From positions 293,287 to 357,286 of the forward strand of contig CAXXOK010000007.1 of NCBI GenBank assembly GCA_963664595.2: DNA of 64,000 nt, read 5' to 3'. A model generated the notes under the pieces. It did not search any database and was not told where the DNA came from. It worked only from the letters and a program-made list of their open reading frames with translations. Every line of letters begins with the position of its first letter. Within the stretch, counting starts at the first letter, position 1. The position numbers and the translations under genes were made by a program. This document shows, piece after piece, positions 3,251 to 60,334 of the stretch. The stretch comes from Candidatus Limiplasma sp. (GTDB taxonomy: Bacteria > Bacillota > Clostridia > Christensenellales > Aristaeellaceae).

Positions 3251-4750
3251 ATGAAAGCACATTGCCGCTACGCCGCCGTTCTCCTCCTGCTGATGCTCAG
3301 CCTGTTTTCCGCCGCTTGCGCACAGGGCGCGGAAGCGGACGCCTCGGCGGAGACGCTCACCCTGACGGGGGACACAGCTGCCTCCCTCGCGTTTCTGGCC
3401 GATAATACCGCCCTGGAGGAGCTGACCCTGCTCAACTGCCCGGCCGTTGACCTGACGCCGCTGACCACCTGCAAGCGCCTGCGGTCGCTCACCCTCATCC
3501 GGGATGAAGGGTCCACGGAAACCGGCGTGTTTGATCTTTCGCCGCTGGTGAAGTGCACGCAGCTGCGCTCACTCACACTGCAGGGTCCCTGCGTGGCCGA
3601 TCTGACCCCGTTGAAAAAGATGCAGGCCCTCACAGGGCTGTCCGTCCTGTCCCTTTCGGCGGATGACTACACGCCCATCGCATCCATGCGGATCAGCTAC
3701 CTTCAGATCGGCGGAGTGCCCGCCGACCAGCTGGCCGTTATCTTCAAGGCGCTGGGCAAGCGGCTGGAAGGCGCCGTGATCGCGGATTGCACGCTCACAC
3801 CGGAAGCCAACGAGGCCATTCTGCGCAGCCCGAAGCTGCTGTCGCTGCGTTTTAACCGGGTAAGCGGCATTGCCACCGGCGCCGACGATTGGAACGGACT
3901 TACCAAAATCACCGGCGTGCAGATGTCCGGCTGCCCGCTGGACGGGCTTGCGTTTCTTTCCCATTACATTGCCGACGTGATCGTGAAGCTTGAGGATATT
4001 GTGATCGGCGGTACTGTTTGCAGTGTGGATTTTGACAAGTATTTTCTCAAAACCGACAACGTTCCCCCGGACGCGATGCTTTCCTTCCTCGGCGGCTCCG
4101 GCTGCCGCTGGCTTTATGCCACGGTCGGCATGGAAACCGGTACGGTTTCCCGGGAGGTGATCGCCGTATTTGCCGATATCGGAAGTCTGCTCTCGCTGGA
4201 TGTGCAGGCCGTAGCACCCGACGCGTGGGACGCGCAGGCCTGGCACGGCTTTCCCAGGCTGGAGCAACTGAAGATGAATGGCTCCGGCGTTTCCGACGCC
4301 GCCTGCCTGCAATCGCTGACGGGGCTGAAACGGCTGACCCTTTCCCATACGGAAGTGATCCACAGTGAAGCGCTCGGCGTGCTGACCGGGCTGCAGCAGC
4401 TGTCGCTGCTCTCCTGCGAGATGGACGGCTGGGAGTATCTGAGCCGCCTCTCCTCGCTGCATCTGTTTGCCGCGGCGGATTGCAACGGCCCCGCCTCGCT
4501 AACCTTTGTAACGGCGCTCAAAAAGCTGGAAACCCTGGCCGTAGAAAACGCGCCCGTTACGGATATCACCCCGCTTGCGCGGCATTCGCTGGAATCTTTA
4601 TATCTGTACGGCTGCCCGATTGAGGACTACGCACCCCTTGCCACGCTGCCGAACCTGTTCATCCTCTCCTGCAACGAGGACGCGGCGCTTCCGTCCATTG
4701 GCTGCCGCATCCTGCGCCGCCGTATGATCGATACCGGGGAGCCGCTGTAA
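3251..4750 (+). CDS. Secreted leucine-rich-repeat (internalin-like) protein
   Basis: The ATG at 3251 follows AGGAGA. Signal peptide MKAHCRYAAVLLLLMLSLFSAACAQG. Repeated L-x-L-x-x-C/N-x-x-x-DLTPL LRR units run throughout. Confidence 0.8.
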   Translation: MKAHCRYAAVLLLLMLSLFSAACAQGAEADASAETLTLTGDTAASLAFLADNTALEELTLLNCPAVDLTPLTTCKRLRSLTLIRDEGSTETGVFDLSPLVKCTQLRSLTLQGPCVADLTPLKKMQALTGLSVLSLSADDYTPIASMRISYLQIGGVPADQLAVIFKALGKRLEGAVIADCTLTPEANEAILRSPKLLSLRFNRVSGIATGADDWNGLTKITGVQMSGCPLDGLAFLSHYIADVIVKLEDIVIGGTVCSVDFDKYFLKTDNVPPDAMLSFLGGSGCRWLYATVGMETGTVSREVIAVFADIGSLLSLDVQAVAPDAWDAQAWHGFPRLEQLKMNGSGVSDAACLQSLTGLKRLTLSHTEVIHSEALGVLTGLQQLSLLSCEMDGWEYLSRLSSLHLFAAADCNGPASLTFVTALKKLETLAVENAPVTDITPLARHSLESLYLYGCPIEDYAPLATLPNLFILSCNEDAALPSIGCRILRRRMIDTGEPL

Positions 4751-4754
4751 GCGC

Positions 4755-6896
4755 CTACTCGTCTTCCAAAGCGTTCATTTCCGCAACCAGCGCGGAGGTG
4801 CCGATGCCAATGATCTCCGTTGTTTTGCGCGCGCTGGTAATGCCGTCGTATTCCCCGATATTGTTGAGCTGTCTGCCCATAAACAGGATGACGGACGTCT
4901 GTCCGCCGTCCATGTTCAGCGCCGCCTGGCAGCCCATATTATACATCAGCGTCGCCAGATGCGTCATGGTGATGCCGTCGCTGTGGTTGAGCCGACCCTC
5001 CGCCATGATCGCCGCGTAGTGTCCCGGCTCAATCATACCGATAGCGCAGCGCGGGTTGGTCCATTTTCCCCAGCTGTCGGCCGCCGGATTGATCTCGCCG
5101 TTGTTGATCAGGTACGGGCCGAAGGAATAGACATCCGTCGCGCCCAGGTCCAGGTACTCCTGCGCGGTCAGGTCATAAGAGGTATGCACCTCCAGCCTGC
5201 CGTCACCAAACAGGGCCAGCGTATCCATGTTGGGAAACATCGTGGTCGCCTGCGGGTAGGGATCGTTGACCAGCACGGCGCCGTCACGGATTATAATCCC
5301 CTTTTTACGCCGTGTCTGGCTGGACAGGCGGTAGGTATAATAATCTGTATTCAAGCCGAATACAACGTTATATTTCCGGGCGATTTCCGCCGCGTCCACG
5401 CTGACCTTGCCAATCGCCGTATCGTCATACTGGAGGGAATTGAGCACCTCGCCCGCCGATACATCCGACCAGATTTCAGCCTCAAACCAGCGCAGCGGCG
5501 TTTCCAGATCAATCTTGCGCTGGATGATCACCTTTAACGTCTGTGAGATATAGATCCACAGCCCGGCATCGTTGTTATCGTATACGAATTCCCCTTCATC
5601 CACAAATCCGGCTGCGTTAAGCTGCGGAAGCACCTCCGTATAGCTCACCTCGGGTGATTCCGCCGCCGCCGCTTCCGGCAGTTCCTCCGCCGGTGCAGAG
5701 GTTACTCGTTCCATGACATTTTCGAGATAATCGCCGCCAAGCACATCCTCCCCAACCTCCGATTCCGCCAATCCGAACAGGGTGTTGTCATACTTCACCC
5801 CGGTGGTTTCCATGCTGGAGGAGGTGGTTTGCTGGGTTATATGCAGCGCGTAGGCCCCGGCGGCCAGCTCCAGACCGGTTTTGCCGTCCATGTTTTGCAG
5901 CGGCACGCTCCAGTCCAGCGTGATCTGATTCTCTTCATATAGATGGGCATACAGCTTTTGCACCTGCCAGACGCCGTACAGCGCCGCGGACTCGGAATAC
6001 TTTTCCGCGTCCCCCGCCGCTTCGTAAGCCTTCAGCGCAAGCTCCGCCGTATAGCGGTGCGCACCGTGGCCGTATTCGCCGCCGAAATCATGGGTCACCA
6101 GCACCTTGGGCTTATACTTGCGCAGCAGCTCCACCACAAATTCAACCGATGTCTGCCGCCCCCAGTTTTTGGCGCAGTCGTCGGCCGTTGTGGTATAGGT
6201 GTCTATAAATTCTCCGATCACGGGATAATGCCGCACGCCCATCGCCCACAGGCCGTTGAGCAGCTCGCTGCGCCGCGTGGTGTTGGAATACGTCATATAC
6301 GCGACAACCACCTTGCGCTGCTGCTCCACCGCATAGGTGGGTATCGCGCCGCCGAAAAACAGCAGCTCGTCGTCGGGATGCGCGACCAGAAACATCAGGT
6401 CCGCGTCCTCCTGGGTCGGCTGCCAGCGCTGCACCCAGGCCGGAACCGTGCCCTCCGAAAAGAGAAATACCTCGTTGATGGCCAAATCCTTATAGGTGCC
6501 CGTATCCTCCACATAGATCCGCAGTATGCTCACACCGTACAGCGGTATATACACATGCTCGTACTCGTTCGTCATTTCGTTGAGGGTTACCCATTCTCCC
6601 GAAATATTGGTCTGCAAAAGCCAGGTGTCCGGCTCATCGGCAAAGCAGATATAGATGCCGTAGCAGTCCACACCGGCCGGCATCGTGATTTGCACGTAAG
6701 GTCCCCGCTTTTCCGAGCTCACCCATTTGGTGGTGTATTTTCCGTCGTGCATCAGGCTGGGCTTCAGCCGGGTAAAGGAGGTGGTAAAGCCGCAGTCCTG
6801 CGTGATATCCAGCGCTTCCCCGGCCGACGCGCAGGAGAGCAAAGCCGTAAGGGCCAGCAGCAGCGCAAGCCCCATGGTCCAGGCCAAACGTTTCAT
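4755..6896 (-). CDS. Secreted three-domain enzyme: discoidin-like N-domain, PIG-L/LmbE-type deacetylase, and phosphodiester glycosidase (NAGPA/DUF2233-like)
   Basis: Signal peptide present. PIG-L motif AHPDDELLFFGG. C-terminal segment NPRCAIG...AEGR...ALNMDGGQTS matches the NAGPA-family ALNLDGGGS signature. AGGGAGGGAA SD. Confidence 0.8.
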   Translation of the reverse strand: MKRLAWTMGLALLLALTALLSCASAGEALDITQDCGFTTSFTRLKPSLMHDGKYTTKWVSSEKRGPYVQITMPAGVDCYGIYICFADEPDTWLLQTNISGEWVTLNEMTNEYEHVYIPLYGVSILRIYVEDTGTYKDLAINEVFLFSEGTVPAWVQRWQPTQEDADLMFLVAHPDDELLFFGGAIPTYAVEQQRKVVVAYMTYSNTTRRSELLNGLWAMGVRHYPVIGEFIDTYTTTADDCAKNWGRQTSVEFVVELLRKYKPKVLVTHDFGGEYGHGAHRYTAELALKAYEAAGDAEKYSESAALYGVWQVQKLYAHLYEENQITLDWSVPLQNMDGKTGLELAAGAYALHITQQTTSSSMETTGVKYDNTLFGLAESEVGEDVLGGDYLENVMERVTSAPAEELPEAAAAESPEVSYTEVLPQLNAAGFVDEGEFVYDNNDAGLWIYISQTLKVIIQRKIDLETPLRWFEAEIWSDVSAGEVLNSLQYDDTAIGKVSVDAAEIARKYNVVFGLNTDYYTYRLSSQTRRKKGIIIRDGAVLVNDPYPQATTMFPNMDTLALFGDGRLEVHTSYDLTAQEYLDLGATDVYSFGPYLINNGEINPAADSWGKWTNPRCAIGMIEPGHYAAIMAEGRLNHSDGITMTHLATLMYNMGCQAALNMDGGQTSVILFMGRQLNNIGEYDGITSARKTTEIIGIGTSALVAEMNALEDE

Positions 6897-47778: not shown

Positions 47779-50397
47779 ATGAAAATTATGGTGCACGGCG
47801 GAAATAAACTACGCAGAGGCATTTCGCTCCTGCTGATTATGAGCATGCTGATCCTCATGCTGCCCACAGTCTCCACGGCGGCAACAAACGGGGTTTACGG
47901 CAACTGCACGGTTACGGCCAGTAACGTCGTTATCCGGTCAAGCCCTGCAGGATCCAGAACAGGATATTTTGCCCAGAAGGGAACCTATCCCATGATCGGC
48001 CCCGTTACCACGGTGGGCGGCGTAAACTGGTACAATATCCAAACCAGCTATACCGCAGGCTATGTCAGCGGCAACTATGCCACGGCCAGCTACGGTACCG
48101 CCGGCATGCCCGCAACGAGCAAAACGTATGTGGACATCCTGTATGATACGGTTGTGCTCACCAAGGGCAGCGATCCGGCAAACCCCACGCTTGATGCCTC
48201 AACAAGCCTGCCGATAACGGTTACCAATCTGAAAGGTACCCTCGTGCAGCTGGTAAACGGTGATTCTCCCTATACCGCGAAAGCCGCAGGCGCTACGGAA
48301 GCTTCATCTTTTATCAATGTGTATTACAACAATGAAGTTTACCATACCCCCTACGTCAACGCGTTCACCGACGGATTGATGTCGGAAGCAAACCTGGATG
48401 ATTATATTACCGGCATCACCTGGAAACAGACCACGGCCGACCGCCGGGACAGCACTGCGAAAGGCGACTATCTGACACACGCGATGCAGGCCGCCCTGTA
48501 CGTGCTGGATTATTATAACGATTCCATCGACGGTTCCTTCGGCGCTAAAACCTCCACGGCTGTGATTGAGTATAAGAAGGATATGAATAAAGCCTTCGGC
48601 TATGGCTGGTCAGAAAATGACGTAATGGGCAATGTCTGTTACAAGGATCTTTTTGCCCAGGCGCTCGACAGGCTTAACTATCTGCGCACCACAAACGGAC
48701 TTGGTACTTCCACCCCCACCACCACGACCACCATGGTCCAAACCACGGTGGAGAACCTGCGTATCCGCAAGTCCTATTCCTCCAGCTCCACCTATATCGG
48801 CATGATTCCCGCGACCGGAACCATCCTGACCTATACACGAACCTATGTCAGCGGCTCCGTTACCTGGTACTATATCCAGTATAACGGCATCTACGGCTGG
48901 GTAATGGGCACCTATGTGAACCCTTATACCGCTCCCACCGGCACAACGACTACCACCCCCACAATCACCAATTACGGCAGTGTAACCATCACCAAAAACC
49001 TGGTCGCCATCCGTACCACCGCCAATGGCTCGCGTACCGGATACCATGTAAACAAAGGTGATGTCTGCACAATGATCGGGCCGGCCGTGGAGGCGGGAAA
49101 ATATACCTGGTACCATATCCGCACCGAGAACGGACGTACGGGCTATGTGCGCGGCGACTGTGCGGATGCCAATTTCGACAGCAGCGCCGGCATGCCGAAA
49201 ACCACAATGAACTATGTACAGTTTTTATACGCCGACATGAAGGCCACGCTGGGCAATACCCCGCCCACAACCAATACGCCGGTGGATATACCCCAGAACA
49301 CCGTATTGCAGTTGACCGGTGCAAGCTATAAGGTAAGCGATGTTGAGTATATCAACGTCTATTACAACAACGACATCTATTACACCCAATATACCAACTC
49401 CCTGACCAACGGCCTGATGACGTCCGATAATCTCAATAACTATATTATCAACACCATTTGGGCACAGGGTCTCCCCAGCGGCAAAGTGGCCGGCAACGGC
49501 GCCGCGTACGCTTATCATACACGCAGCATCTATGTGCACGCGATCCAGGCCGCACTCTATCAGCTGGGCTTTATGACGGATAAGGATACCTTTGACGGCA
49601 GCTTCGGCACGGTAACCGCCGCCGCAGTCAAAGCGTTCAAGAAAGCCTATAACTTCACCACCGTTGATGAAATCATCGACACAAGCGACAGCATCACTCT
49701 GTTCTTAGCCGCAGCCGCAGCCCTGAAGGCCAAGCTGATCGCGGCTTCCGCAGACACCGGCGACGGCACCGTTCTTTCCGCGGGTGATTTCGGCACGGTC
49801 AACACGGTGAAGAAGGGCTCCTGGTCTGAAATTGACGGCGGCGCCACCAGCCTGTTCCCCAAAGGCTCCGTAGCGTATGTCATGTCCGTGAAAACCAAGC
49901 AGGTATTCCGCCTGTACCGCTGGTCCGGCGCCAACCATGCCGACTGCGTACCCTATGATACCTCCGATACGGCAACCCTGTGTTCCGTTCTCGGTATGAC
50001 GTACAATGCCGCTACTCCCTCCTCCAGCGAGCTTTCCCAGATCAAGGCGTCCGGCAATCAGGACTGGCCGGACTATACCTGGCCCAAAATGCGCTGGGGC
50101 GGTACCACCCTTGCCAATGCTTATAAAATCCCCGTATGGGTTAACCTGAACGGCACCGTGTACTGTGCCAGTATCTACGTGATCCCGCACGGCTTTACCG
50201 GCTCCAGCAGCTTCTCGCTTTCGAAGCTCAACGGATCGTACTTCTATGAGCGCAACAACACCTACGGCATGCTGTGTGTGCACTTCTACGGCAGCACCAC
50301 CCACGCCTCGGGCAAGGTTGATTCTGAGCATAACTCAAACATCAGCTACGCGTACAACCAAGCTGGCTCGTACTTCGGTTCCGGCAAGGTAAAGTAA
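47779..50397 (+). CDS. Large modular secreted protein: three SH3b-like domains, two peptidoglycan-binding-like domains and an uncharacterised Cys/His-containing C-terminal domain
   Basis: Signal peptide present. An internal two-fold module is visible (INVYYNNEVYHTPY.../YINVYYNNDIYYTQY..., and ...DGSFGAKTSTAVIEYKK/...DGSFGTVTAAAVKAFKK). Confidence 0.8.
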   Translation: MKIMVHGGNKLRRGISLLLIMSMLILMLPTVSTAATNGVYGNCTVTASNVVIRSSPAGSRTGYFAQKGTYPMIGPVTTVGGVNWYNIQTSYTAGYVSGNYATASYGTAGMPATSKTYVDILYDTVVLTKGSDPANPTLDASTSLPITVTNLKGTLVQLVNGDSPYTAKAAGATEASSFINVYYNNEVYHTPYVNAFTDGLMSEANLDDYITGITWKQTTADRRDSTAKGDYLTHAMQAALYVLDYYNDSIDGSFGAKTSTAVIEYKKDMNKAFGYGWSENDVMGNVCYKDLFAQALDRLNYLRTTNGLGTSTPTTTTTMVQTTVENLRIRKSYSSSSTYIGMIPATGTILTYTRTYVSGSVTWYYIQYNGIYGWVMGTYVNPYTAPTGTTTTTPTITNYGSVTITKNLVAIRTTANGSRTGYHVNKGDVCTMIGPAVEAGKYTWYHIRTENGRTGYVRGDCADANFDSSAGMPKTTMNYVQFLYADMKATLGNTPPTTNTPVDIPQNTVLQLTGASYKVSDVEYINVYYNNDIYYTQYTNSLTNGLMTSDNLNNYIINTIWAQGLPSGKVAGNGAAYAYHTRSIYVHAIQAALYQLGFMTDKDTFDGSFGTVTAAAVKAFKKAYNFTTVDEIIDTSDSITLFLAAAAALKAKLIAASADTGDGTVLSAGDFGTVNTVKKGSWSEIDGGATSLFPKGSVAYVMSVKTKQVFRLYRWSGANHADCVPYDTSDTATLCSVLGMTYNAATPSSSELSQIKASGNQDWPDYTWPKMRWGGTTLANAYKIPVWVNLNGTVYCASIYVIPHGFTGSSSFSLSKLNGSYFYERNNTYGMLCVHFYGSTTHASGKVDSEHNSNISYAYNQAGSYFGSGKVK

Positions 50398-50413
50398 GGG
50401 TTCCTCGGGTTTA

Positions 50414-50456
50414 ACAGCCAATCAAAGCCCCGCAGCAATGCGGGGCTTCTGGCTGT
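50414..50456 (+). terminator. Long hairpin with a GCAA tetraloop after the exoprotein gene (no good U-tail)
   Basis: Outer pair acagcca/tggctgt and inner pair agccccgca-gcaa-tgcggggct. Confidence 0.5.
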
Positions 50457-50502
50457 CAAAAAAGAAGGGTCCAGGGCTGAAAGTCCTGGTCAGGGTGCAG
50501 GG
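50430..50502. repeat. Repeat unit copy 1: 19-nt block ccgcagcaatgcggggctt (50430-50448) and 18-nt block cctggtcagggtgcaggg (50485-50502)
   Basis: Both blocks recur identically and in the same order at 51970-51988 and 52031-52048. Confidence 0.85.
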
Positions 50503-50542
50503 GTGAAACCCTTGCCGGGGATTGGGGTGGAATGTCAAGCCC

Positions 50543-51842
50543 AACATAGTTTACACATTGTCCGAGGACATAGTTTACAACTTTTCAGTCAAGCGGGGAT
50601 CGCCCTCTGCCAAATAGCATGTGCGGGATACCATTTTCTTTTCCCTCAAATCTATCCGTCCGATCCGGAATTGTCGATAGAGCAGATTTACAAAACCATC
50701 TATCGATGAGGGCTTTACCGCAATACACTTGCCCCCGAACGAACAGCTGAGAAAGTAACGCTCTCCTCCATAGTGGATATACCCTTTCTTCTTAACCTCA
50801 CGCAATTCACATTCCGTTCCATATTCCCAGTCCGTTATTCTCTCAGGGAAAACGCGCGTGCTTGCCTGATAGTGCTCTGCCGGAGCATCCAGCCCCAGCG
50901 CATGATGCGGCCGCTTCTGATTGTAAAACTCCCGGTATTCCGTCCGCTGGCGGTCGGCATCAATTAGGTCGTACGGCACGTGATACTGTAGCCTTTCATC
51001 CTTGTAGGACCGGTTGAATTTCTCCGCTTTCCCCTGAGTCTGGGGATGATGCGGACGAATATGAATAGTCAGGATACCAAGCTCCATTAACCAGACCTCA
51101 AACGGGGTATATCCGCCGCTGTAATTTGTTCCCCAGGGGTTTCCGTTATCGCAAAGCAGCATCTGCGGTAATCCGTATTCCTTGAAAACCTTACGAAAAC
51201 TCTCTTCTACGCCTTTGTGCTGTTCATTTGCTTTCGCATCGGCACACAGGCAGAACCGGCTGTGATCGTCGATGATCGACAAGGGGTGGCAACGTTCTCC
51301 GTTTTGCATCGCGAAGTTACCCTTGAAGTCGGTCTGCCACAGGATGTTCGGGGCTTCTTTTTCAAACCGTTTACATCGCGCAGCAGCCTGGCTTGCTTCC
51401 CGTGTGATGAGGTGATTGCGTTTCAGCACGGCATTGACGGTGCTGACACAGGGCAGCTTCGTATAGCCCTGGTTGCTTAGCATCCGATGGATCTTTTTGG
51501 CGCCGATCGCAGGTTCTTTCTGTCTCGCTTCTACAATTATGGCTTCAGTCTCTGCGCTGAGCTTATTCGGGGTGTGGAACGGCGCCTTGCTTCGGTCCCT
51601 CATCCCTTCTCCGGCTTGATGCCGTTTGATCCACTTGTCTCCTGTTGGCCTGCTTATTCCGTATTCACGGCACAGAGCGCTCTTGTTCTTCTCCCCGGCC
51701 AGCGCTCTTTTGACAAACTCAGCCCGATTCATTTCCACAGTTCTCTCTTCCCAAGGCATGGCCACCAATCCCTTGCGTTTTCATGCCTCTATTTTATTCG
51801 AAAACTGTAAATCATGTCCTCGGACTTTCTGTAAACCATGTT
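50543..51842 (-). mobile_element. IS481-like insertion sequence (~1.3 kb) with ~42-bp imperfect terminal inverted repeats
   Basis: Left inverted repeat aacatagtttacacattgtccgaggacatagtttaca versus the reverse complement of the right repeat, aacatggtttacagaaagtccgaggacatgatttaca. Single DDE ORF. No target-site duplication seen. Confidence 0.8.
50575..51768 (-). CDS. DDE (rve/integrase-core) transposase, IS481-family-like
   Basis: N-terminal HTH (ALCREYGISRPTGDKWIKR). DDE triad regions WQTDFK, LCDNGNPW and QTQGKAEKFNRSYKDE. Start is the TTG at 51768 or the ATG at 51759. Confidence 0.85.
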   Translation of the reverse strand: MVAMPWEERTVEMNRAEFVKRALAGEKNKSALCREYGISRPTGDKWIKRHQAGEGMRDRSKAPFHTPNKLSAETEAIIVEARQKEPAIGAKKIHRMLSNQGYTKLPCVSTVNAVLKRNHLITREASQAAARCKRFEKEAPNILWQTDFKGNFAMQNGERCHPLSIIDDHSRFCLCADAKANEQHKGVEESFRKVFKEYGLPQMLLCDNGNPWGTNYSGGYTPFEVWLMELGILTIHIRPHHPQTQGKAEKFNRSYKDERLQYHVPYDLIDADRQRTEYREFYNQKRPHHALGLDAPAEHYQASTRVFPERITDWEYGTECELREVKKKGYIHYGGERYFLSCSFGGKCIAVKPSSIDGFVNLLYRQFRIGRIDLREKKMVSRTCYLAEGDPRLTEKL

Positions 51843-51965
51843 ACTAGTCTATACATGGAACCCCAAAGGCTTGCGTAACAACAAAGGTGTAAGCGAGCAA
51901 ACAGCGCCCAAGGCGCTATGAAGCGAGCGGCGATAACGACCCGAAGAGGTTCTTTGACAAGCTGA

Positions 51966-51994
51966 AGCACCGCAGCAATGCGGGGCTTTTCTTT
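51966..51994 (+). terminator. Second copy of the GCAA-tetraloop hairpin, here with a good U-tail
   Basis: agcaccgca-gcaa-tgcggggct followed by ttttcttt. Confidence 0.55.
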
Positions 51995-52048
51995 ACTCCA
52001 GAATGCCAACAGGTGAGCCCTGTCCGAGGCCCTGGTCAGGGTGCAGGG
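51970..52048. repeat. Repeat unit copy 2 (19-nt and 18-nt blocks identical to 50430-50448 and 50485-50502)
   Basis: Direct, same-order duplication on the other side of the IS. The intervening spacer is not similar. Confidence 0.85.
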
Positions 52049-52345
52049 CTTATCCCTGCATTTCAACACATGGATACTGCGCGTGGACAGCGCTGCAGGC
52101 TCTGTGATGCGATCGTCAATAACGCCCTCCATCGTTTCTTTGATAAGCTACGCCTTGCAAACGTACAATGCCTTCCGCGGTAATATGAGCGTCTGCTTTG
52201 CCGACACTCAAATATCAAGGGGATTATTATTGAGCAACACGCTTCGCTCATTGTTTCTTGGTATCGGCTTCGCCGCTCTGCCGGAGCATTCGCTACAACC
52301 CCGTAGACCCAATCCATGCCTCCAATGCGCAGCGATGTTGCTTTT

Positions 52346-52384
52346 AACAGGCAAATGCCCCGCGGTGCGGGGCATTTGCCTGTT
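52346..52384. other. Perfect 18-bp hairpin with a 3-nt loop
   Basis: aacaggcaaatgccccgc-ggt-gcggggcatttgcctgtt. No U-tail on either strand. Lies ~200 nt downstream of the ANTAR gene. Confidence 0.8.
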
Positions 52385-52582
52385 ATATTGAATTGCAGTT
52401 TTTAAATTTTCTAAGTAAGCGATGAATAAAGCGCTTGTGCGATGGGGCGCTAGCTTTGCATCAGATCGAGGATTGCGGAACCTGAAGCAGTAGCAACACT
52501 ACATCGAAACATCGACGTTTCTCAAACCTAAGCTGGCGAAAGGATAGCGCGGCAGTTTGCAAGGGATTTATTCAGTGTTTGT

Positions 52583-53152
52583 CTAGAGTTCAAACCTTTC
52601 CAGCACCTTTTTCGCTACTCGTACGCGCGACATGCGGCTGTCCATGGCTTCCTTTTCCAGTACGCGGTGCGCTTCTTCTTCGGTGATGCGCATATGCTCT
52701 ATCAGCAGGCACTTGGCGCGGTCAATCACCTTCAGCTCCTCGTACCGGGTTTGCATGCGCTCGGTCTGCTCCTTGTAGATCAGCAGGCGGTTGCGGCACG
52801 CGATGCCCACTTTGATGGTTTGCTCAAACAGAAGCTGATTTACGGGCTTGGTCACAATCAACACCCCGGCGTTCATCGCCGTATCCGCAATCAACGGCGC
52901 CATCTCGGTTTTCACCAGCAGCACGACCGCCGCGGTGGTATTGCGCGCCAAATCGATCGCCAGTTCCAGACCGGATTCATCCTGCAGGGGTGCATTAATC
53001 AAAGCAAGCGAAAACAAATCTCCGCTTGCCTTGCGGCGTGCCTGCGCCGCACCGGTTGCAGGCTCAATTTCGCCGATGCACATGGCGCTGAGCCACTCCA
53101 TCAGCTTACCCTGCCCTTTTGCAGCTACCAGTAAGTTGCGCTCCTGCGTCAA
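52583..53152 (-). CDS. ANTAR-domain RNA-binding antiterminator with a non-phosphorylatable receiver-like N-domain
   Basis: TTG start 9 nt after AGGAGA. C-terminal ANTAR (IDRAKCLLIEHMRITEEEAHRVLEKEAMDSRM). The receiver-like half has NLLVAAKG in place of the DD pair and LALINAPL with Asn at the acceptor position. Confidence 0.8.
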   Translation of the reverse strand: MTQERNLLVAAKGQGKLMEWLSAMCIGEIEPATGAAQARRKASGDLFSLALINAPLQDESGLELAIDLARNTTAAVVLLVKTEMAPLIADTAMNAGVLIVTKPVNQLLFEQTIKVGIACRNRLLIYKEQTERMQTRYEELKVIDRAKCLLIEHMRITEEEAHRVLEKEAMDSRMSRVRVAKKVLERFEL

Positions 53153-53173
53153 AATTCAAGCTCTCCTATTCCG

Positions 53174-54457
53174 TTAAAAGCACTGAAACTGCTCGTTGAA
53201 CAACCCGGTTTTATCCTGACGGTCGAGCAGCAGCATTTCTTCGGCATGGTACAGGAAAGCGTCCAATACGCTCTTGGGTAATAACCGTTTGATGAAATCA
53301 CTGTTTTTGGCCGCCGTAATGGCGTCGCTCAGAGATTCAGGAAGCATGGGCATATCCTCAAAGCCTTTGGCGGTTACGGGATCAGGCAGTGTTTCCCCTT
53401 TTTCAATGCCTTCCAGCGCCGCATGGATGATCAGCGCATAGGCAAGGTACGCGTTGCTCAGGCTATCCGCGCTGGCAATTTGCATATGCGCAAAGTGGTG
53501 CTGGGGAAGCGGCACCCGGACGGCGTTGAGGTTGTGCTGGTACGACCAGCAAATGCGGTTTGGCGATTCTCCATCCGTCAGCCGGTCATAGCTGTTGGGA
53601 ATGGGGTTCAGAAACAGCGTCAGATCGGCCAGGCGGTTCAGCACGCCCGCCATGGCGGCTTTCGCTTCCGGTGAAAGCTCCCCGTCTTCCATCTGGAACA
53701 GGTTTTTGCGTTCCTTAAAAAGCGCGAAATCCACTTTGAACGCGCTGCCAAACTCGTTCATCAGCGGCTTGGGCATAAAGGACGCGCACAGGCCGTAACG
53801 CGTGGCAATCGTACGGACGGCGTTGTGGAACGCCACCAGATGATCGGCTCCGGTCAGAGGATCGGCGCGGTGGAAATCGATTTCGTTCTGCCCCGGACCA
53901 CGCTCATGATGGCTTACCTCCGGGCGGATGTTCATGGACAGCAGCGTGAGGCAGATTTCCCGGCGCACATCCTCCCCGCGGTCCAGCGGCGCGACATCCA
54001 GATAGCTGCCGTTATCCTGTGGTTTGTTGGTAATAAGGCCCTGTTCATCGGCTTCAAAAAGGTAAAACTCGCATTCGGCGCCGATGCGGATGGAGTAGCC
54101 GCGATTGTTGGCAAGCTCCTTGGCCTTGCGCAGAATGCTGCGCGTATCGCCCTCGTAGGGCTGCCCGTCCGCGGTTACCACATCGCAGATCAGGCGGCAT
54201 ACACGGCTGGCCTGCGGACGCCACGGAAGGATACTCAGCGTGTCCGGATCGGGGCGCAGGAGAAGCTCTCCTTTCTCGCTGGCTTGAAAACCGTCCACCG
54301 CCGCCGCGTCAAATGGAATGCCATGCTCAAATGCCTCGGAAAGCATCTCCGGCTGGATGGCAATGTTTTTCAGCTTGCCAAACAGATCCGGAAACGCAAG
54401 CCGGACAAATTTCACATCATTCTCTTCCAAAAAGTCCATTACTTCTTGCGCAAGCAT
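53174..54457 (-). CDS. Glutamine-synthetase type I-like protein with substituted catalytic residues (probable non-catalytic or divergent GS homologue)
   Basis: Full-length GSI (type I glutamine synthetase) architecture with GAECEFYLF and SHHERGPGQNEIDF retained. However, KPLMNEFGSAFKVDFALF, HNLNAVRVP and AHMQIASADSLSNAYLA replace the canonical NGSGMH, NRS..IRIP and R.E.R..D...NPYLA motifs. Confidence 0.75.
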   Translation of the reverse strand: MLAQEVMDFLEENDVKFVRLAFPDLFGKLKNIAIQPEMLSEAFEHGIPFDAAAVDGFQASEKGELLLRPDPDTLSILPWRPQASRVCRLICDVVTADGQPYEGDTRSILRKAKELANNRGYSIRIGAECEFYLFEADEQGLITNKPQDNGSYLDVAPLDRGEDVRREICLTLLSMNIRPEVSHHERGPGQNEIDFHRADPLTGADHLVAFHNAVRTIATRYGLCASFMPKPLMNEFGSAFKVDFALFKERKNLFQMEDGELSPEAKAAMAGVLNRLADLTLFLNPIPNSYDRLTDGESPNRICWSYQHNLNAVRVPLPQHHFAHMQIASADSLSNAYLAYALIIHAALEGIEKGETLPDPVTAKGFEDMPMLPESLSDAITAAKNSDFIKRLLPKSVLDAFLYHAEEMLLLDRQDKTGLFNEQFQCF

Positions 54458-54501
54458 TGGATCCCTCCCGTTGTCTGTACATTCGGTCCGCTTCCGCAGG
54501 G

Positions 54502-55713
54502 CTACTCACGCAGCTCCAGCAGCTTTTGCTTGAGCTGGGATTCCATCACCAGCAGCTGCTTTTCCGCGTCGATGCGCTTCTGCCGACCGTCCTTTTGCAC
54601 ATTCATCACTTCGGTGATCGTGTCGATTAAATCCTGATTGGTTTTGGTAAGCGTCTGCACGTCGATGATGCCGCGCTCGGCTTCCCTCGCCGTTTCGATG
54701 GTGCCCATCTTGAGCATTTCGGAGTTCTTTTTCAGCAGCTCGTTGGTCATATTGGTCACGGCCGTCTGCGCCTTGAGCGCCTGCTGGCTGCGGGCCAGGC
54801 CCAGCGAGATGACAATCTGGCTCTTCCACAGCGGCAGCGTGTTGGACAGTGTGGACTGGATGCGTTCCACCAGCAGGCTGTCGTTGTTTTGCAAAAGCCT
54901 GATCTGCGGCGCCATCTGCAGCGATACCGTACGCGTGAGCTTGAGATCGTGGAGCTTCTTTTCAAAGCGGTCGCACGCGGTGGACAGGTCGTTCACGCGC
55001 TGGGCGTCCATGGTATCCTGACTGTTTTTCGCCTTTTCGCTGAGCTCCTTCAAAGCGCCCTCGCGGACCTCTTTGAGCTTTTTCTCACCCGCGACGATAT
55101 ACATTGTCAGCTCCTTGAAATACTGGGTATTCGTTTCATACAGGTGGTTGAGCATGCTGATGTCCTTGAGCAGCATCCGCTGGTTTTCCTCCAGCGAAGA
55201 CGCCACCTCGTCCACGTTTACATCCACCTTTTCATAGCGGTTCTTGATCTCTTCAAAGTTCTTGCGGGCATTCCAAAACAGGCCGCGGATGCCGGAAGGC
55301 TTGTCCGCATCGGTGGAAAAGCCCTTGATCTCGCTGATGAGCTTGATCAGCATTTCACCGGTTTCCCCCGTCTGGTCGGTGCGCACGGTTGCCAGGGCGC
55401 TGTCCGAAAACTCGGCAACCTTTTTTTGCGCGCTCGCGCCGTACAGCAGCACATGCTCTGGGTTTTGAATATCGATTTTCTTTACGAATTCTTCAATGGT
55501 CTGCTTCTCGTTTTCGCTGAGCATGGAGGTATCCAGCTCCTGCAGGGCTTGTTCGGCAGCCTTTGCCGCCTTGGCGGTGGGAGCGGTGGCGTTTACCTTT
55601 TCCAGTGCGGCAACCGCTTCCTCCAGCTTGGCCTTGTCATTATCCATGGTTTGGTCATCCAGCGTCAGCACCGGCATTTCTGCGGCGCTGCTCTGCGTGT
55701 TTACATCAGTCAT
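54502..55713 (-). CDS. telA: TelA/YaaN-family toxic-anion-resistance protein
   Basis: 403 aa, coiled-coil-rich, with the typical TelA N-region (LLYGASAQKKVAEFSDSAL). Paired with xpaC as in Bacillus subtilis xpaC-yaaN. Confidence 0.8.
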   Translation of the reverse strand: MTDVNTQSSAAEMPVLTLDDQTMDNDKAKLEEAVAALEKVNATAPTAKAAKAAEQALQELDTSMLSENEKQTIEEFVKKIDIQNPEHVLLYGASAQKKVAEFSDSALATVRTDQTGETGEMLIKLISEIKGFSTDADKPSGIRGLFWNARKNFEEIKNRYEKVDVNVDEVASSLEENQRMLLKDISMLNHLYETNTQYFKELTMYIVAGEKKLKEVREGALKELSEKAKNSQDTMDAQRVNDLSTACDRFEKKLHDLKLTRTVSLQMAPQIRLLQNNDSLLVERIQSTLSNTLPLWKSQIVISLGLARSQQALKAQTAVTNMTNELLKKNSEMLKMGTIETAREAERGIIDVQTLTKTNQDLIDTITEVMNVQKDGRQKRIDAEKQLLVMESQLKQKLLELRE

Positions 55714-55725
55714 GGAATTGCCTCC

Positions 55726-56559
55726 TTAATATTCGATCTGCTGTGCCTGCGATCCGTTGGACACGGACGCGGTTTGCTGCTGAGGCGCTGCGGAAGCTTT
55801 TTGAGCGTTCACCGCTGCGTTGATTTCCGCCGCGCGCCTTGCCTGGTCTGCCGCAAGCTGCAGGTCTGTTTCGGTTAATCCGTCCCGTTTGAGCATCTGC
55901 TCAAGCACATCAATGTCCGTGGTAATGTCCAGTACATCGTCCTGATACAGCTTGTTGAGCAGCTTCTGACAGCCCTTGATCACAGTCCCCAGTGCGTCGT
56001 CGATACGCTGGCGGGCCTCGATGATTTCGCTGCCGCTGAGGCCACGCTCATTGAAGGTGCGGTACGTACGGACGATTTTCAGCGTGGTGGGCAGATAATA
56101 CTCCATAAATTTGCGGATCTGCGGGGCCTTTTCGGGCTTATCATGCACGGTGCGGAAAATCTCCCCGCACAGGATTTCCAGCTGCGCCAGCTTATCGGTC
56201 AGCAGCGCGTCGGGAATCTTCATGTTTTCCTCGCGGATCTGCAAAATGGTCTGCCGTCCCTTTTCCAGCAGGGAATCCACCTCGGTGTTGCCGGTTTTCT
56301 CCACAGGCGGGGGCGTAACGGGCATGGCCTCGCGCGCTTTGCGTTCCTTGCTCTGGTTGTTGTTGGGGGTCAGATCAAGGCTGGTGGCCATGGAGCGTAC
56401 AACGGAGCTCACAATACCTGCTAGAATAAAGCTGCCGATCAGGCCGCCGAACCCTCTGAAGCCAAGTAATAAAAAGCATACGGCAAACGTGATGCCAAAA
56501 GCTGTGCTTCCGGCCTTTTTCCCCTTTGCCTGCTGTTGTTTTCTGGAGTAGTTGCTCAT
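55726..56559 (-). CDS. xpaC: XpaC-like (5-bromo-4-chloroindolyl phosphate hydrolysis) membrane protein
   Basis: Two N-terminal TM helices, then FMEYYLPTTLKIVRTY, characteristic of the XpaC family. Confidence 0.75.
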   Translation of the reverse strand: MSNYSRKQQQAKGKKAGSTAFGITFAVCFLLLGFRGFGGLIGSFILAGIVSSVVRSMATSLDLTPNNNQSKERKAREAMPVTPPPVEKTGNTEVDSLLEKGRQTILQIREENMKIPDALLTDKLAQLEILCGEIFRTVHDKPEKAPQIRKFMEYYLPTTLKIVRTYRTFNERGLSGSEIIEARQRIDDALGTVIKGCQKLLNKLYQDDVLDITTDIDVLEQMLKRDGLTETDLQLAADQARRAAEINAAVNAQKASAAPQQQTASVSNGSQAQQIEY

Positions 56560-56863: not shown

Positions 56864-57070
56864 ATGGCTTCGGTCACCGTCAAAGAAGATTTATGCAAAG
56901 GCTGCGGGCTGTGCGTAGATGCCTGCCCCAAAAAAATAATGCAGCTGAACACTACACACATTAATAAGAAGGGCTACCACACCGCGCATTGCGTCGCAAT
57001 GTCGGAGTGCATCGGCTGTGCTTTTTGCGCCATGATGTGCCCGGATGTGGCAATCCTCGTTGAAAAATGA
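56864..57070 (+). CDS. 2-oxoacid:ferredoxin oxidoreductase delta subunit (2x[4Fe-4S] ferredoxin)
   Basis: The ATG at 56864 follows GGAAGGGAGG. 68 aa with CKGCGLCVDACP and CIGCAFCAMMCP. Confidence 0.9.
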   Translation: MASVTVKEDLCKGCGLCVDACPKKIMQLNTTHINKKGYHTAHCVAMSECIGCAFCAMMCPDVAILVEK

Positions 57071-57100
57071 TCACGGCATTCGCCGGGAAGGAAAGAACGC

Positions 57101-59056
57101 ATGAAGAAACTCATGAAAGGCAACGAAGCGATTGCCGAGGCGGCCGTGCAGGCCGGATGCAAGTTTTTTTTCGGCTATCCCATCACGCCGCAGAATGAAA
57201 TCCCTGAATATATGTCCAGACGTCTGCCGGAGGTGGGCGGCTGTTTTCTGCAGGCGGAAAGCGAAGTAGCCGCCATTAATATGGTGTACGGTGCGGGCGG
57301 TGCGGGCGCACGCGTGATGACCAGCTCCTCCAGCCCCGGGATCAGCCTCAAGCAGGAGGGCATCAGCTATATCGCAGGCGCGGAAGTGCCCTGCGTTATC
57401 GTCAACATCATGCGCGGCGGCCCCGGTCTGGGCGGCATTCAGCCTGCCCAGAGCGATTATTACCAGGCCACCCGCGGCGGCGGGCACGGCGACTACCGCA
57501 TGTGCGTGCTGGCGCCTTCCAGCGTGCAGGAGGCCGTGGACTTAACCAAGAACGCCTTCACCATCGCCGACCGCTACCGCAGCCCCGTGCTGGTACTGGG
57601 CGACGGCATGATCGGCCAGATGATGGAGCCCGTGGATATGGAAAAGGAAGCCCCGTCGGCGGATGGTCTTCCCGAAAAAACCTGGGCGGCCGACGGGCAT
57701 GTGCCCACGCCGGACCGGCCCCGCAGCATCATCAACAGCCTGTTTATCGACCCGAAGGTGCTGGAGCAGCACTGTTTGCGCCTGGAAGCCAAATACCGCA
57801 CCATCGCTGAGAACGAGTGCCGCTGGCAGGAGGAAATGCTGGACGACGCCGAGGTTGTGCTCGTAGCCTACGGCACCACCAGCCGTATCTGCCGAAGCGC
57901 CATGCGCAAATGCCGCGAGGCGGGCCTCAAGGTAGGCATGCTGCGGCCGATCACGCTGTGGCCCTTCCCGGATCAGGCTATCCGCGCCACCCTGCCCACC
58001 GCCAAGCACTATCTGGCGGTGGAGATGAGCACCGGACAGATGGTGGACGATGTCCGCCTTGCCGTCAACGGCGAGCGTCCCGTGCACTTCTTCGGGCGTA
58101 CGGGCGGCATGGTGCCTTCCGTTTCCGAAGTGGTTGCGGAAATCAAAAAGTACGCGTCTCAGGACAGCGGTACCTGCTTTGATCTTGACCATGTCATCGA
58201 CGATATGCAGGAAAAGCTGAAAACAGCCACGGCCGAAATGAAACGTGCCCTGCACAACGCGGGCAAACAGCTGGACACAGGGGCGGCAGCCGGTTTGAAG
58301 AATACGCTGAATTCCGCTGCCGATACCGTAAAACAATCGATCAAGGGGGCAGGAAAAGTGTTTGATGAATCTTCATTTGATGAAATCGAAGCAAAGTTCA
58401 AAACCGCGCTTGACAAGATGAAGCAAAAACTGAAGGATGCCGGCGACAGGATCGACGATACCTCCTCCGACGAAATGGTGCGCAAGGTTAAGGATGCCGC
58501 CAACGCCATGGCCGCGCGGATGAAAGAAGCCGCCGGAAAAATGGGCGATCAGCTGAATAAAGCCGGTTCAGAGGCCGATTCCTCTCCGCTGAACGAAATC
58601 GAAGAGGAGCTGGACAAAGCCTCCCAGGAGCTGGACAAGGCGTTTGAAACCGCCGCCGACTCGGTGGACCAGGCTGCGGAAGAAACCGCCGAAGCCGTGG
58701 AAACCCCCGAAACCGCCGAAGAAGAAGCGGAACAGCCGGAAGCGGAAGACGCCGAAACGGACGAGCTTACGCTGGAAGAAGTCGGCAAGAAGCTGGAAGC
58801 CGCCGCAAAGCTGGTGGAAGAAAAGCTCAACGAAGCCGGGAAAAAGATCGACGAGATCCTTAACAGCCCGAAGGCCCAGAAAAAAACCGAGGATGCGGGC
58901 CGCCAGATCAACGAGTTTTTCGACCGTACGGGCAAATCCGTCGCCGGTGGCTTTGAGAGCTTTATGAAAATCGTCACCCATGCGGCGGAAACCGTAAAAA
59001 ACGATCTGAAGGACATTGAGAAGTCCAAGGATTCACAGGACAAGGAGGACAAATAA
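57101..59056 (+). CDS. 2-oxoacid:ferredoxin oxidoreductase alpha subunit (KorA/VorB-type) fused to a ~300-aa charged, repeat-containing helical C-terminal extension
   Basis: The first ~350 aa are canonical (GNEAIAEAAVQAGCKFFFGYPITPQNEI...). The ORF continues without a stop through 58157-59053. Confidence 0.85.
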   Translation: MKKLMKGNEAIAEAAVQAGCKFFFGYPITPQNEIPEYMSRRLPEVGGCFLQAESEVAAINMVYGAGGAGARVMTSSSSPGISLKQEGISYIAGAEVPCVIVNIMRGGPGLGGIQPAQSDYYQATRGGGHGDYRMCVLAPSSVQEAVDLTKNAFTIADRYRSPVLVLGDGMIGQMMEPVDMEKEAPSADGLPEKTWAADGHVPTPDRPRSIINSLFIDPKVLEQHCLRLEAKYRTIAENECRWQEEMLDDAEVVLVAYGTTSRICRSAMRKCREAGLKVGMLRPITLWPFPDQAIRATLPTAKHYLAVEMSTGQMVDDVRLAVNGERPVHFFGRTGGMVPSVSEVVAEIKKYASQDSGTCFDLDHVIDDMQEKLKTATAEMKRALHNAGKQLDTGAAAGLKNTLNSAADTVKQSIKGAGKVFDESSFDEIEAKFKTALDKMKQKLKDAGDRIDDTSSDEMVRKVKDAANAMAARMKEAAGKMGDQLNKAGSEADSSPLNEIEEELDKASQELDKAFETAADSVDQAAEETAEAVETPETAEEEAEQPEAEDAETDELTLEEVGKKLEAAAKLVEEKLNEAGKKIDEILNSPKAQKKTEDAGRQINEFFDRTGKSVAGGFESFMKIVTHAAETVKNDLKDIEKSKDSQDKEDK

Positions 59057-59057
59057 C

Positions 59058-59798
59058 TTGGCTGTTGTTTTTGATAAATCCAAGCTCCTGTGCGAAAAGC
59101 CGTTCCATTACTGCCCCGGCTGCACACACGGCATCATCCACCGCCTGGTCGCGGAAGCAATGGATGAACTGGGCATCGGCGAAACGGCCATCGGCGTCGC
59201 GCCGGTGGGCTGCGCGGTGTTTGCGTATGATTATTTCAACTGCGATATGATGGAAGCCTCCCACGGCCGAGCCCCGGCTGTGGCCACGGGCATCAAGCGT
59301 GTTTGCCCGGACAAGGCTGTGTTTACCTATCAGGGCGACGGTGACCTGGCCTCCATCGGCGCCGCGGAAATCGTACACGCGGCCACCCGCGGCGAAAAGA
59401 TTACCGTAATCTTTGTCAACAATGCCATCTACGGCATGACCGGTGGACAAATGGCCCCCACCACCCTGCCGGGCCAGGTAACCACCACCAGCCCCTACGG
59501 GCGCGATGTGAACCACTGCGGCTATCCCGTGCCTGTGAGCGAAATGCTTTCCACACTGGGCGGGGTTGCGTATATTGAGCGCGTCAGCGTACACGACGTA
59601 AAGCACGTGAAAGCGGCCAAGGCGGCCATCAAAAAAGCGTTTGCCACGCAAATGGAGGGCAAGGGCTTCACGATGGTCGAGGTGCTTTCCACCTGTCCCA
59701 CCAACTGGGGCCTGTCGCCCAAGGAATCGCTGCAATGGCTGCAGGACAATATGATCCCCGCTTACCCGCTGGGCGTGTTCAAGGGAGGCGATCAGTAA
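59058..59798 (+). CDS. 2-oxoacid:ferredoxin oxidoreductase beta subunit (TPP-binding)
   Basis: TTG at 59058, 8 nt after AAGGAGGA. YCPGCTHGIIHRL, GDGD...IG and NNAIYGMTGGQ. Confidence 0.88.
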   Translation: MAVVFDKSKLLCEKPFHYCPGCTHGIIHRLVAEAMDELGIGETAIGVAPVGCAVFAYDYFNCDMMEASHGRAPAVATGIKRVCPDKAVFTYQGDGDLASIGAAEIVHAATRGEKITVIFVNNAIYGMTGGQMAPTTLPGQVTTTSPYGRDVNHCGYPVPVSEMLSTLGGVAYIERVSVHDVKHVKAAKAAIKKAFATQMEGKGFTMVEVLSTCPTNWGLSPKESLQWLQDNMIPAYPLGVFKGGDQ

Positions 59799-60334
59799 TG
59801 GAAAAACAGTTTTTGATCGCGGGCTTCGGCGGCCAGGGCGTACTGCTGATCGGGCAGCTGATCGCCAAAGCCGCCATGCTGGAAGGCAATGAAGTGAGCT
59901 GGATGCCCAGCTACGGCCCCGAAATGCGCGGCGGCGAAGCCAACTGCGCCGTGGTGGTCAGCGACGAGGCCATCGGCTCCCCGCTGGTCAGCGAGCCGCC
60001 GATTCTGGTGGCGATGAACAAGCCCAGCCTGTCAAAGTTTATGCCCCGGATGCCCAAGGGCGGGCTGATGCTTTATAATTCCTCCCTGATTGAAAACCCT
60101 GAGCTGCGTGACGACATCCAGGTGATTGCCGTTCCCTGCAACGCTATTGCCGAATCCCTGCATCAGCCCCGGGTCGCCAACATGGTGATGCTCGGCGCGC
60201 TGCAGGCCGCCACCCAGGCTTTTTCCAGCGACAGCCTGCTCCAGGTGATGATCGCCTGGCTGGGCGAGAAGAAAGCGCACCTGCTGGATGTCAACAAGCA
60301 GGCGGTGGGCATGGGCAAAGCGCTGGTGCAGTAG
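59798..60334 (+). CDS. 2-oxoacid:ferredoxin oxidoreductase gamma subunit
   Basis: The ATG at 59798 overlaps the beta-subunit stop (TAATG). IAGFGGQGVLLIGQ..., SYGPEMRGG. Confidence 0.88.
   Translation: MEKQFLIAGFGGQGVLLIGQLIAKAAMLEGNEVSWMPSYGPEMRGGEANCAVVVSDEAIGSPLVSEPPILVAMNKPSLSKFMPRMPKGGLMLYNSSLIENPELRDDIQVIAVPCNAIAESLHQPRVANMVMLGALQAATQAFSSDSLLQVMIAWLGEKKAHLLDVNKQAVGMGKALVQ

Follow-up and report, generated by a model that had tools for sequence, protein, structure and literature searches.

How the Clostridia and allied gut anaerobes regulate nitrogen is poorly understood; to our knowledge, these bacteria for the most part do without the NtrBC and GlnR/TnrA systems known from model organisms. 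The closest described arrangements place a glutamine synthetase (GS) gene directly before a gene for an ANTAR antiterminator. According to a later account, the ANTAR gene nitR comes right after a GS gene in Clostridium saccharobutylicum NCP262, and NitR is said there to antiterminate the GS and glutamate synthase (GOGAT) genes when nitrogen is limiting (Stutz 2007, as cited in PMC6316151). In C. thermocellum, Clo1313_2031/2030 lie beside the GOGAT and type III GS genes (PMC4676874, PMC9888227), and the title of Rydzak 2017 (cited in PMC9888227) states that deletion of the type I GS deregulates nitrogen metabolism in this species. The papers on both systems treat the GS as an enzyme, not as a sensor (PMC6316151, PMC4676874, PMC9888227), and no described GS–ANTAR complex was found among open-access papers and preprints, subscription journals lying outside the search. 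Elsewhere, AmiC and NasS sequester a pseudo-receiver ANTAR partner until their ligand arrives (PMC3369931, PMC3795266). Here, we analyze a GS-like gene and its adjacent ANTAR gene within 64,000 nucleotides (nt) of Candidatus Limiplasma sp. DNA (contig CAXXOK010000007.1, positions 293,287 to 357,286; hereafter the window). An earlier note, drawn from the letters of the window alone, had proposed that a GS-like protein with a dismantled active site gates an antiterminator, and had known of no characterized example of the pairing; the latter claim was too strong, glnA-nitR and Clo1313_2031/2030 having been described. Our analysis makes it fairly probable that the pair is a nitrogen-status switch, in which the GS-like protein acts as the nitrogen sensor and controls the ANTAR antiterminator.

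The GS-like protein (open reading frame (ORF) 53174..54457, minus strand; 427 residues; hereafter the query) follows type I GS over its full length, as had been claimed, with Pfam matches to both Gln-synt_N (E = 9e-22) and Gln-synt_C (E = 3.9e-75). Its score against the TIGR00653 GlnA model (300.5 bits, cut-off 429.15) does not reach the equivalog level. The best solved relative found by phmmer is the type I-alpha GS (GSI-alpha) of M. mazei (8s59, E = 7e-88), and an AlphaFold2 (AF2) model built on 16 relatives (predicted local distance difference test (pLDDT) score 84.7, predicted template modeling (TM) score 0.89) matches M. mazei GS with a TM score of 0.90 (8tfk/8s59). To name residues, we placed S. 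typhimurium numbers on the query through motif equivalences that we take to be those of the established GS literature. In the phmmer alignment to 8s59, GSGMHSNQS reads GSAFKVDFA (H269, H271, and S273 become K241, D243, and A245), QNRSS reads QHNLN (R339 becomes N309), TRIELR reads AHMQIA (R355, E357, and R359 become H324, Q326, and A328), and FDGSS reads FDAAA (S53 becomes A53). N264 is likewise replaced, by F236. The hand alignment of the substituted motifs in the earlier note is thereby reproduced residue by residue, and the case that it had named against itself, a shifted alignment hiding conserved ligands, did not arise.

All three n1 metal ligands are kept, within the motifs where that note had placed them: E131, E212, and E220, at E130, E185, and E192 of the query. 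Also retained are R321 (R292), E327 (E297), D50, and Y179 (Y152). Of the n2 metal ligands, E129 is present (E128) and both H269 (K241) and E357 (Q326) are lost. Among the phosphate and ATP residues only R344 (R314) is kept, with R339, R355, R359, H271, and S273 all gone. The alignment thus indicates that the n1 site and the amino-acid-binding residues survive while the n2 site and the ATP/phosphate machinery have disappeared, which agrees with the proposed dismantling of the active site. Judged from these residues and the modeled fold, the query is a GSI-alpha protein that is predicted to have lost catalysis.

Loss of the catalytic set is graded across the family. We compared the query with its 120 closest homologues (121 aligned sequences). 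At approximately 50% identity to the query all catalytic ligands are present (GNGLHINLS, GNRSQLIRIP, GRMELR), though even these ligand-complete homologues read FDASA where GS has FDGSS; at 51–69% identity the n2 Glu has become Gln and R339 and R359 are gone; at 75–96% identity the n2 His is lost too. Overall, Gln occupies the E357 position in 86 of the 121 sequences, almost all of which lack R339 and R359, and 30 of these 86 have lost the n2 His as the query has. To sample the family more broadly, we scanned GTDB with family motifs, using one genome per species, which recovered relatives in at least 584 species genomes; species-level analyses were made on the best 80 of these loci. Five of the 80 show different patterns of loss (L015, L031, L045, L049, and L072), and a further three carry E129K (L008, L021, and L029). 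Because the patterns differ among loci, the catalytic losses appear to have been separate events. These data suggest that catalysis is dispensable in the GS-like family.

Could the GS-like gene simply be a decaying relic without function? Several of its catalytic residues are lost and an insertion sequence (IS) element adjoins the pair, as such a relic might display, but we find this barely credible. The reading frame is intact, the full-length fold model is confident, and approximately 130 GS-like alignment columns are invariant across relatives of 51–85% identity. Moreover, the ratio of nonsynonymous to synonymous substitution rates (dN/dS), computed for the query against five relatives, is 0.10–0.22 for the GS-like and ANTAR genes alike, on which ground we rejected a decaying pseudogene. 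Protein divergence of the two partners also matches, and both genes are under purifying selection.

The second gene of the pair (52583..53152, minus strand; TTG start) encodes an ANTAR protein of 189 residues and begins 21 nt downstream of the GS-like ORF, as first reported for the coordinates of both. The spacer (53153..53173, minus strand) holds its ribosome-binding site, GGAGAG, and we infer that the two genes are translated from a single transcript. The protein comprises a receiver fold (residues 5–102), a long coiled helix (106–154), and a three-helix ANTAR domain (131–184). The latter is recognized by PF03861 over exactly this span (E = 9.2e-16), whereas the receiver half scores 16.8 bits against Response_reg (PF00072), below the cut-off of 30.2. 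The AF2 model (pLDDT 92.7) consists of a (beta-alpha)5 receiver, a long helix, and an ANTAR bundle. Its best fold match is RNA-bound EutV (6ww6, TM score 0.80), with further matches to Rv1626 and AmiR (1qo0, TM score 0.67). Within the ANTAR domain, A146, K147, A161, H162, A169, and A180 are invariant in the family.

The receiver of this protein lacks the residues used in phosphotransfer. In the model, and in alignments to CheY and Rv1626 that agree with it, strand beta1 ends in A10-A11 where CheY has D12/D13, and strand beta3 ends in N53 where CheY has its phospho-acceptor D57; K102-P103 (CheY K109) is retained. This is the reading that the earlier note had reached by eye, of a receiver half with no acidic pair and with Asn at the acceptor position. 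The same Asn is found in all 80 genome ANTAR partners and in 79 of 80 metagenome homologues. Since every ANTAR partner lacks the acidic pair, the pseudo-receiver is a trait of the family, present even beside GS-like partners that appear catalytically intact. The receiver domain is thus predicted to be incapable of phosphorylation.

Adjacency statistics, which had been suggested as a check on the pairing, show an association in both directions. In 79 of the 80 species loci the GS-like gene is immediately followed by an ANTAR ORF, the contig of the 80th being cut; many Clostridia of gut and sediment share the pair. Conversely, the GS-like gene lies directly 5′ of the ANTAR gene in approximately 61 of the 71 metagenome loci that were recovered with the ANTAR protein and have enough upstream sequence. 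The 80 loci derive from Oscillospiraceae, Ruminococcaceae, Christensenella, Clostridium, Sedimentibacter, Defluviitalea, Erysipelotrichales, and several Treponema/Sphaerochaeta. Lone ANTAR homologues occur in metagenome loci (L127, L129, L131, L132, and L144; ANTAR gene near 3950–4520), where the upstream genes encode an ABC transporter or unrelated proteins and carA lies directly downstream. Their acceptor position is still Asn, and their partner, if any, is encoded elsewhere.

Genomic context links the pair to nitrogen assimilation. Among the 68 loci for which it was tallied, the immediate upstream neighbor is the GOGAT GXGXG subunit 25 times, a divergent type III GS 13 times, and GlmS 6 times. 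Immediate downstream neighbors are CTP synthase (PyrG; 13 loci), carA then carB (12), dapF (8), and purF (3). The intergenic regions carry a leader motif, a hairpin in which the closing C-G pair never varies and the hexaloop reads AAnGGC (C-AAnGGC-G); the loop and 3′ arm of this hairpin also constitute the 5′ arm of a long intrinsic terminator. One class of leader, tgaacAAAGGCgttca, precedes the GOGAT/GS-like operon, and another, acagcAAAGGCgctgt, precedes the type III GS gene. A strict search of 901 kb detected 86 hairpin-plus-terminator instances, compared with 1.6 ± 1.0 in dinucleotide shuffles, and with looser criteria the leader was found in 52 of the 80 species loci. The stem covaries around its fixed loop: 88% of cells are paired, 87 cells show double changes against 31.7 when shuffled (0/500), and pairing falls clearly when the stem partners are slid. 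In every leader the minimum-free-energy fold is the terminator (z −5.4 to −8.5), from which we take termination to be the default state and the small hairpin to be the antiterminator.

A strict dual-hexaloop search (two A..G.. hairpins and a T-run) returned almost nothing. We therefore dropped the canonical two-hairpin model of ANTAR targets, as the leaders hold one conserved hairpin. An Rfam scan of eleven related loci identified only tRNAs, a purine riboswitch, and cyclic di-GMP (c-di-GMP) riboswitches; the leaders themselves matched no known family. In two Sedimentibacter loci the ANTAR gene is closely followed by c-di-GMP-I-GGC riboswitches, and in a Clostridium locus the purine riboswitch lies downstream of it (L019 4211–4286, L022 8096–8171, and L030 8438–8539); these are regulatory RNAs unrelated to the module. 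A C-AAAGGC-G hairpin with terminator also occurs downstream of the ANTAR gene in L057 (8010–8065, plus strand), L060 (10014–10049, plus strand), and L037 (13092–13160, plus strand). It is followed by a 279-residue ORF in L057, which was not annotated on its own (dapF often occupies this site in the loci), and by a 613-residue ORF in L060. Such leaders suggest that the regulon is larger than GS and GOGAT.

The window itself yielded no leader hairpin when searched in three ways, all matches lying inside ORFs or lacking a stem. A weak match at 485–559 (minus strand) was rejected, being a G-U-rich 4-bp stem after nusB, and an Rfam gathering scan of the window gave 0 matches. The leader search outlined in the earlier note was thus fruitful in relatives, where terminator leaders stand before type III GS, GOGAT, and the pair itself, but these bear a single hairpin and none lies in the window. 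Similarly, the second, intact glnA that it had asked after was not found within the 64-kb window, nor was any other second GS gene or nitrogen-assimilation gene, while genomes of Limiplasma relatives encode a type III GS. One Ca. Limiplasma contig (2,604,479 nt) carries a degenerate pair (L004), whose GS-like protein is 67% identical to the query and has E357Q, R359A, and R339G; approximately 1.7 Mb away lies a type III GS gene followed by an amtB-glnB fusion (L085). The fusion is a 574-residue ORF (L085 8335–10059, plus strand) encoding an ammonium transporter joined to a PII domain. The type III GS gene of L085, whose leader lies at 5880–5960, is preceded by TTGACA-17-TATACT, the hairpin acagcAACGGCgctgt, and a terminator, and the same leader is found in another Limiplasma (L086) and in a 61% relative (L083), which again combines a degenerate pair with a leader-bearing type III GS. 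Type III GS is therefore the real, leader-bearing GS of this degenerate lineage, and presumably also of the organism from which the window derives.

What the GS-like protein might bind can be approached through its conserved pockets. Archaeal GSI-alpha enzymes bind 2-oxoglutarate through F24, R26, R87, R172, R173, and S189 in M. mazei GlnA1 (PMC11957540) and through F18, R20, R88, R174, R175, and S191 in M. thermolithotrophicus GS (PMC10799026). B. subtilis GS (BsGS) is without this motif, with clashes at Y20/E36 and R88 absent (PMC10799026). All six residues are present in the query (F17, R19, R80, R165, R166, and S182), and hand alignment places A33 at the position of BsGS E36. Each is kept in 85–86 of the 86 degenerate members and in 34–35 of the 35 intact members, R26 and R87 having one exception each, and the set is conserved in nearly all 80 species loci. 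As these six residues remain near-invariant in degenerate and intact members alike while catalytic residues decay, 2-oxoglutarate is the most likely ligand and the best-supported candidate. Its pocket, which did not figure among the earlier note's considerations, appears from the alignments to be the best-conserved ligand site of the family.

The note had instead listed Gln, Glu, or ATP. ATP is an unlikely ligand because the lost residues are those for ATP and phosphate. Gln or Glu binding at the vestigial amino-acid pocket is possible, either in addition to 2-oxoglutarate or in its place. In the stronger form of this idea, which the note had modeled on the binding of TnrA/GlnR by glutamine-bound B. 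subtilis GS, the sensor works through its vestigial active site, and Gln or Glu rather than 2-oxoglutarate captures or releases the ANTAR protein. The residues that survive suit such a role, serving the amino-acid substrate, the n1 metal, and ammonium (E131, E212, E220, G265, and D50), with R321 in 85 of 86 and Y179 in 86 of 86 degenerate members and E327 partly kept, and the residues that are lost serve ATP, phosphate, and the n2 metal. We nevertheless regard this form as unlikely. BsGS R62, which locks glutamine in the feedback-inhibited enzyme (PMC10799026), is absent family-wide: its position is A59 in the query, and no Arg occurs there among the residues tallied in the 121 sequences. Bulky hydrophobic residues replace N264, the E327 flap is Glu in just 47 of the 86 degenerate members, and the amino-acid pocket varies far more than the 2-oxoglutarate site.

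We propose that the pair functions as a one-operon nitrogen-status switch, wherein the GS-like protein, having given up catalysis, would serve as a metabolite receptor. Its ligand would most likely be 2-oxoglutarate, held at the inter-subunit allosteric pocket, to which Gln or Glu at the vestigial pocket may add. The receptor would most likely control the ANTAR protein by direct contact, as AmiC controls AmiR and NasS controls NasT. Once released or activated, the ANTAR protein would bind the nascent C-AAnGGC-G hairpin in the leaders of nitrogen-assimilation genes, with probable targets in relatives being type III GS (glnN, in some cases joined by amtB-glnB), the split GOGAT operon, and also the GS-like/ANTAR pair. 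Binding would presumably switch these genes toward read-through, because the hairpin loop and 3′ arm otherwise build the 5′ arm of the terminator. The most specific version of this proposal, in which a dead GSI-alpha paralogue acts as the receptor for 2-oxoglutarate (and possibly glutamine) and directly gates a pseudo-receiver ANTAR opener of the single-hairpin glnN, GOGAT, and amtB leaders, is put forward tentatively, as a possibility that falls somewhat short of probable.

Several observations weigh against this switch. Most family members keep an intact catalytic set, and these could be simply regulated enzymes. A GS-like neighbor is missing from approximately 14% of ANTAR homologues. An ANTAR-type leader often precedes the pair as well, so that the GS-like gene is also a target and not a regulator alone. 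Each leader holds one ANTAR-type hairpin, where the EutV/NasR/AmiR model has two, and its second stem-loop has no conserved loop. The 64-kb window contains neither a target hairpin nor a nitrogen-assimilation gene, and the targets in this organism would lie outside it. Finally, the 2-oxoglutarate pocket residues sit at the subunit interface, where their conservation could serve assembly alone.

The first three of these points would also be expected if the two genes were merely co-expressed, as in the classical view of glnA-nitR. The GS-like protein would then work as an enzyme, whether as a GS isoform or as a gamma-glutamyl ligase for another substrate, and the ANTAR protein would answer to PII or an unknown partner; relatives of type I-gamma are in fact gamma-glutamyl-polyamine ligases (PMC10799026). 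Such co-expression is difficult to square with the query and its 85 close relatives, which are all without the n2 Glu and almost all without R339 and R359, the n2 His having gone as well from the query and 30 of the 86. It also leaves aside that adjacency and purifying selection persist even away from nitrogen genes, as in the window, L001, and L036. We consider it quite unlikely, and continue to favor the nitrogen-status switch. The degenerate lineage of the window is the clearest evidence for a non-catalytic role of the GS-fold partner, being a natural experiment that parts sensing from catalysis: the enzyme function appears to be gone and the pair is kept under selection. From the earlier note, then, the dismantled site, the pseudo-receiver, the adjacency, and the link to nitrogen all stand, whereas ATP becomes an unlikely ligand and the want of a characterized example falls away.

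If its most specific version is correct, the proposal would describe the chief circuit by which a large share of the Clostridia reads nitrogen status, and a first GS-fold pseudoenzyme to control an RNA-binding regulator. The module would be widespread and would join a GS-fold sensor to a pseudo-receiver ANTAR protein and, as its third part, to a short hairpin in the leaders of type III GS and GOGAT genes; it would place a GS-fold pseudoenzyme among the metabolite receptors. It would also offer a defined 2-oxoglutarate/antitermination switch for nitrogen-flux engineering in industrial clostridia, e.g. C. thermocellum.

In the window, the neighbors of the pair are telA, xpaC, an IS element, and a 2-oxoacid:ferredoxin oxidoreductase (OFOR) cluster, with no leader hairpin. 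The telA gene (54502–55713, minus strand) lies upstream of the pair, preceded by an xpaC-like gene (55726–56559, minus strand). The 44-nt spacer from the telA stop to the GS-like start (54458..54501, minus strand) was inspected for promoter-like and terminator-like sites and contains neither, which makes co-transcription of the pair with xpaC-telA probable. This context is common to the close relatives L001 and L036, while most other species have nitrogen-assimilation genes on the flanks of the pair. Approximately 200 nt past the ANTAR stop codon, a perfect 17-bp hairpin (52347..52383, minus strand) may be where the transcription unit ends, but it lacks a clear U-tract and a terminator scan did not score it. 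The region directly downstream of the ANTAR gene (50398–52583) contains an IS481-like transposase (ORF 50575–51768, minus strand; rve/rve_3 and a helix-turn-helix) and approximately 800 nt of unmatched sequence beside it. At this site L001 and L036 have a low-molecular-weight phosphatase gene and others, and synteny resumes at window position 50397. There, an 872-residue secreted protein with repeated SH3_3 and PG_binding_1 domains (47779–50397, plus strand) is syntenic in L001 and L036, and L081 and L083 carry comparable genes; this protein has no bearing on the GS-like/ANTAR finding.

On the other side, a four-subunit OFOR cluster (56867–60334, plus strand) adjoins the pair, as it does in L001, L036, and L081/L082. 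In L081/L082 the GS-like protein is just 51% identical to the query, yet KorA is 79% identical. We set aside a functional link between this cluster and the pair, since the adjacency is confined to these loci and absent from all others and is therefore probably local synteny; the neighbor is still of interest given the 2-oxoglutarate hypothesis. The OFOR alpha subunit (57101–59056, plus strand) has 651 residues, of which the POR_N and PFOR_II domains end near residue 344. They are followed by a tail of approximately 300 residues, an E/K/A-rich helical repeat with a weak apolipophorin-III match, which overlaps the start of the beta-subunit ORF at 59016. The L081 homologue, at 445 residues, is without this tail.

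Set against the described systems, the pair most closely resembles glnA-nitR and Clo1313_2031/2030, in which a small ANTAR gene directly succeeds a gene of the type I GS family and both are linked to GOGAT and type III GS. The glnA-nitR gene layout recurs in most of the species loci analyzed here. Most relatives retain the GOGAT/GS linkage, whereas the window pair has left the nitrogen cluster, follows telA, and has no leader. Moreover, the GS of those two systems is treated as the enzyme, while the GS-like partner in the window has lost n2 metal and phosphate ligands and is not expected to be one. EutV-type RNA targets resemble the leaders in their hexaloop A1 and G4, conserved closing pair, and overlap with an intrinsic terminator (PMC3369931). 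They differ in having dual hairpins, where the leaders here have a single one, and AAnGGC is a far narrower loop consensus than that of ANTAR targets in general.

In AmiC–AmiR of Pseudomonas aeruginosa and NasS–NasT of Paracoccus denitrificans, a pseudo-receiver ANTAR protein is likewise encoded beside its sensor, for which the GS-like protein is the candidate here. The sensors of those systems have a periplasmic-binding-protein fold and bind amides or nitrate, in contrast to a GS fold that is expected to be dodecameric; their complexes are proven, whereas contact between the GS-like and ANTAR proteins is what the arrangement suggests. In Bacillus and its relatives, a GSI-alpha also reports nitrogen status to a gene regulator, TnrA or GlnR, by contact (PMC11800386). 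That GS is an active enzyme with a glutamine signal locked by R62 and with DNA-binding MerR-type partners, whereas in the present pair R62 is absent, catalysis appears to be lost, and the partner is a predicted RNA-binding protein. The archaeal GSI-alpha enzymes M. mazei GlnA1 and M. thermolithotrophicus GS, which provide the best sequence and structure matches, share the complete F-R-R-R-R-S motif with the query but are active enzymes switched on by 2-oxoglutarate. Since the query is predicted to be unable to catalyze, a 2-oxoglutarate-driven change within it would need to be read out by a partner. Overall, the GS-then-ANTAR layout is already described, and the new element would be a GS-fold pseudoenzyme as the candidate sensor for an ANTAR protein.

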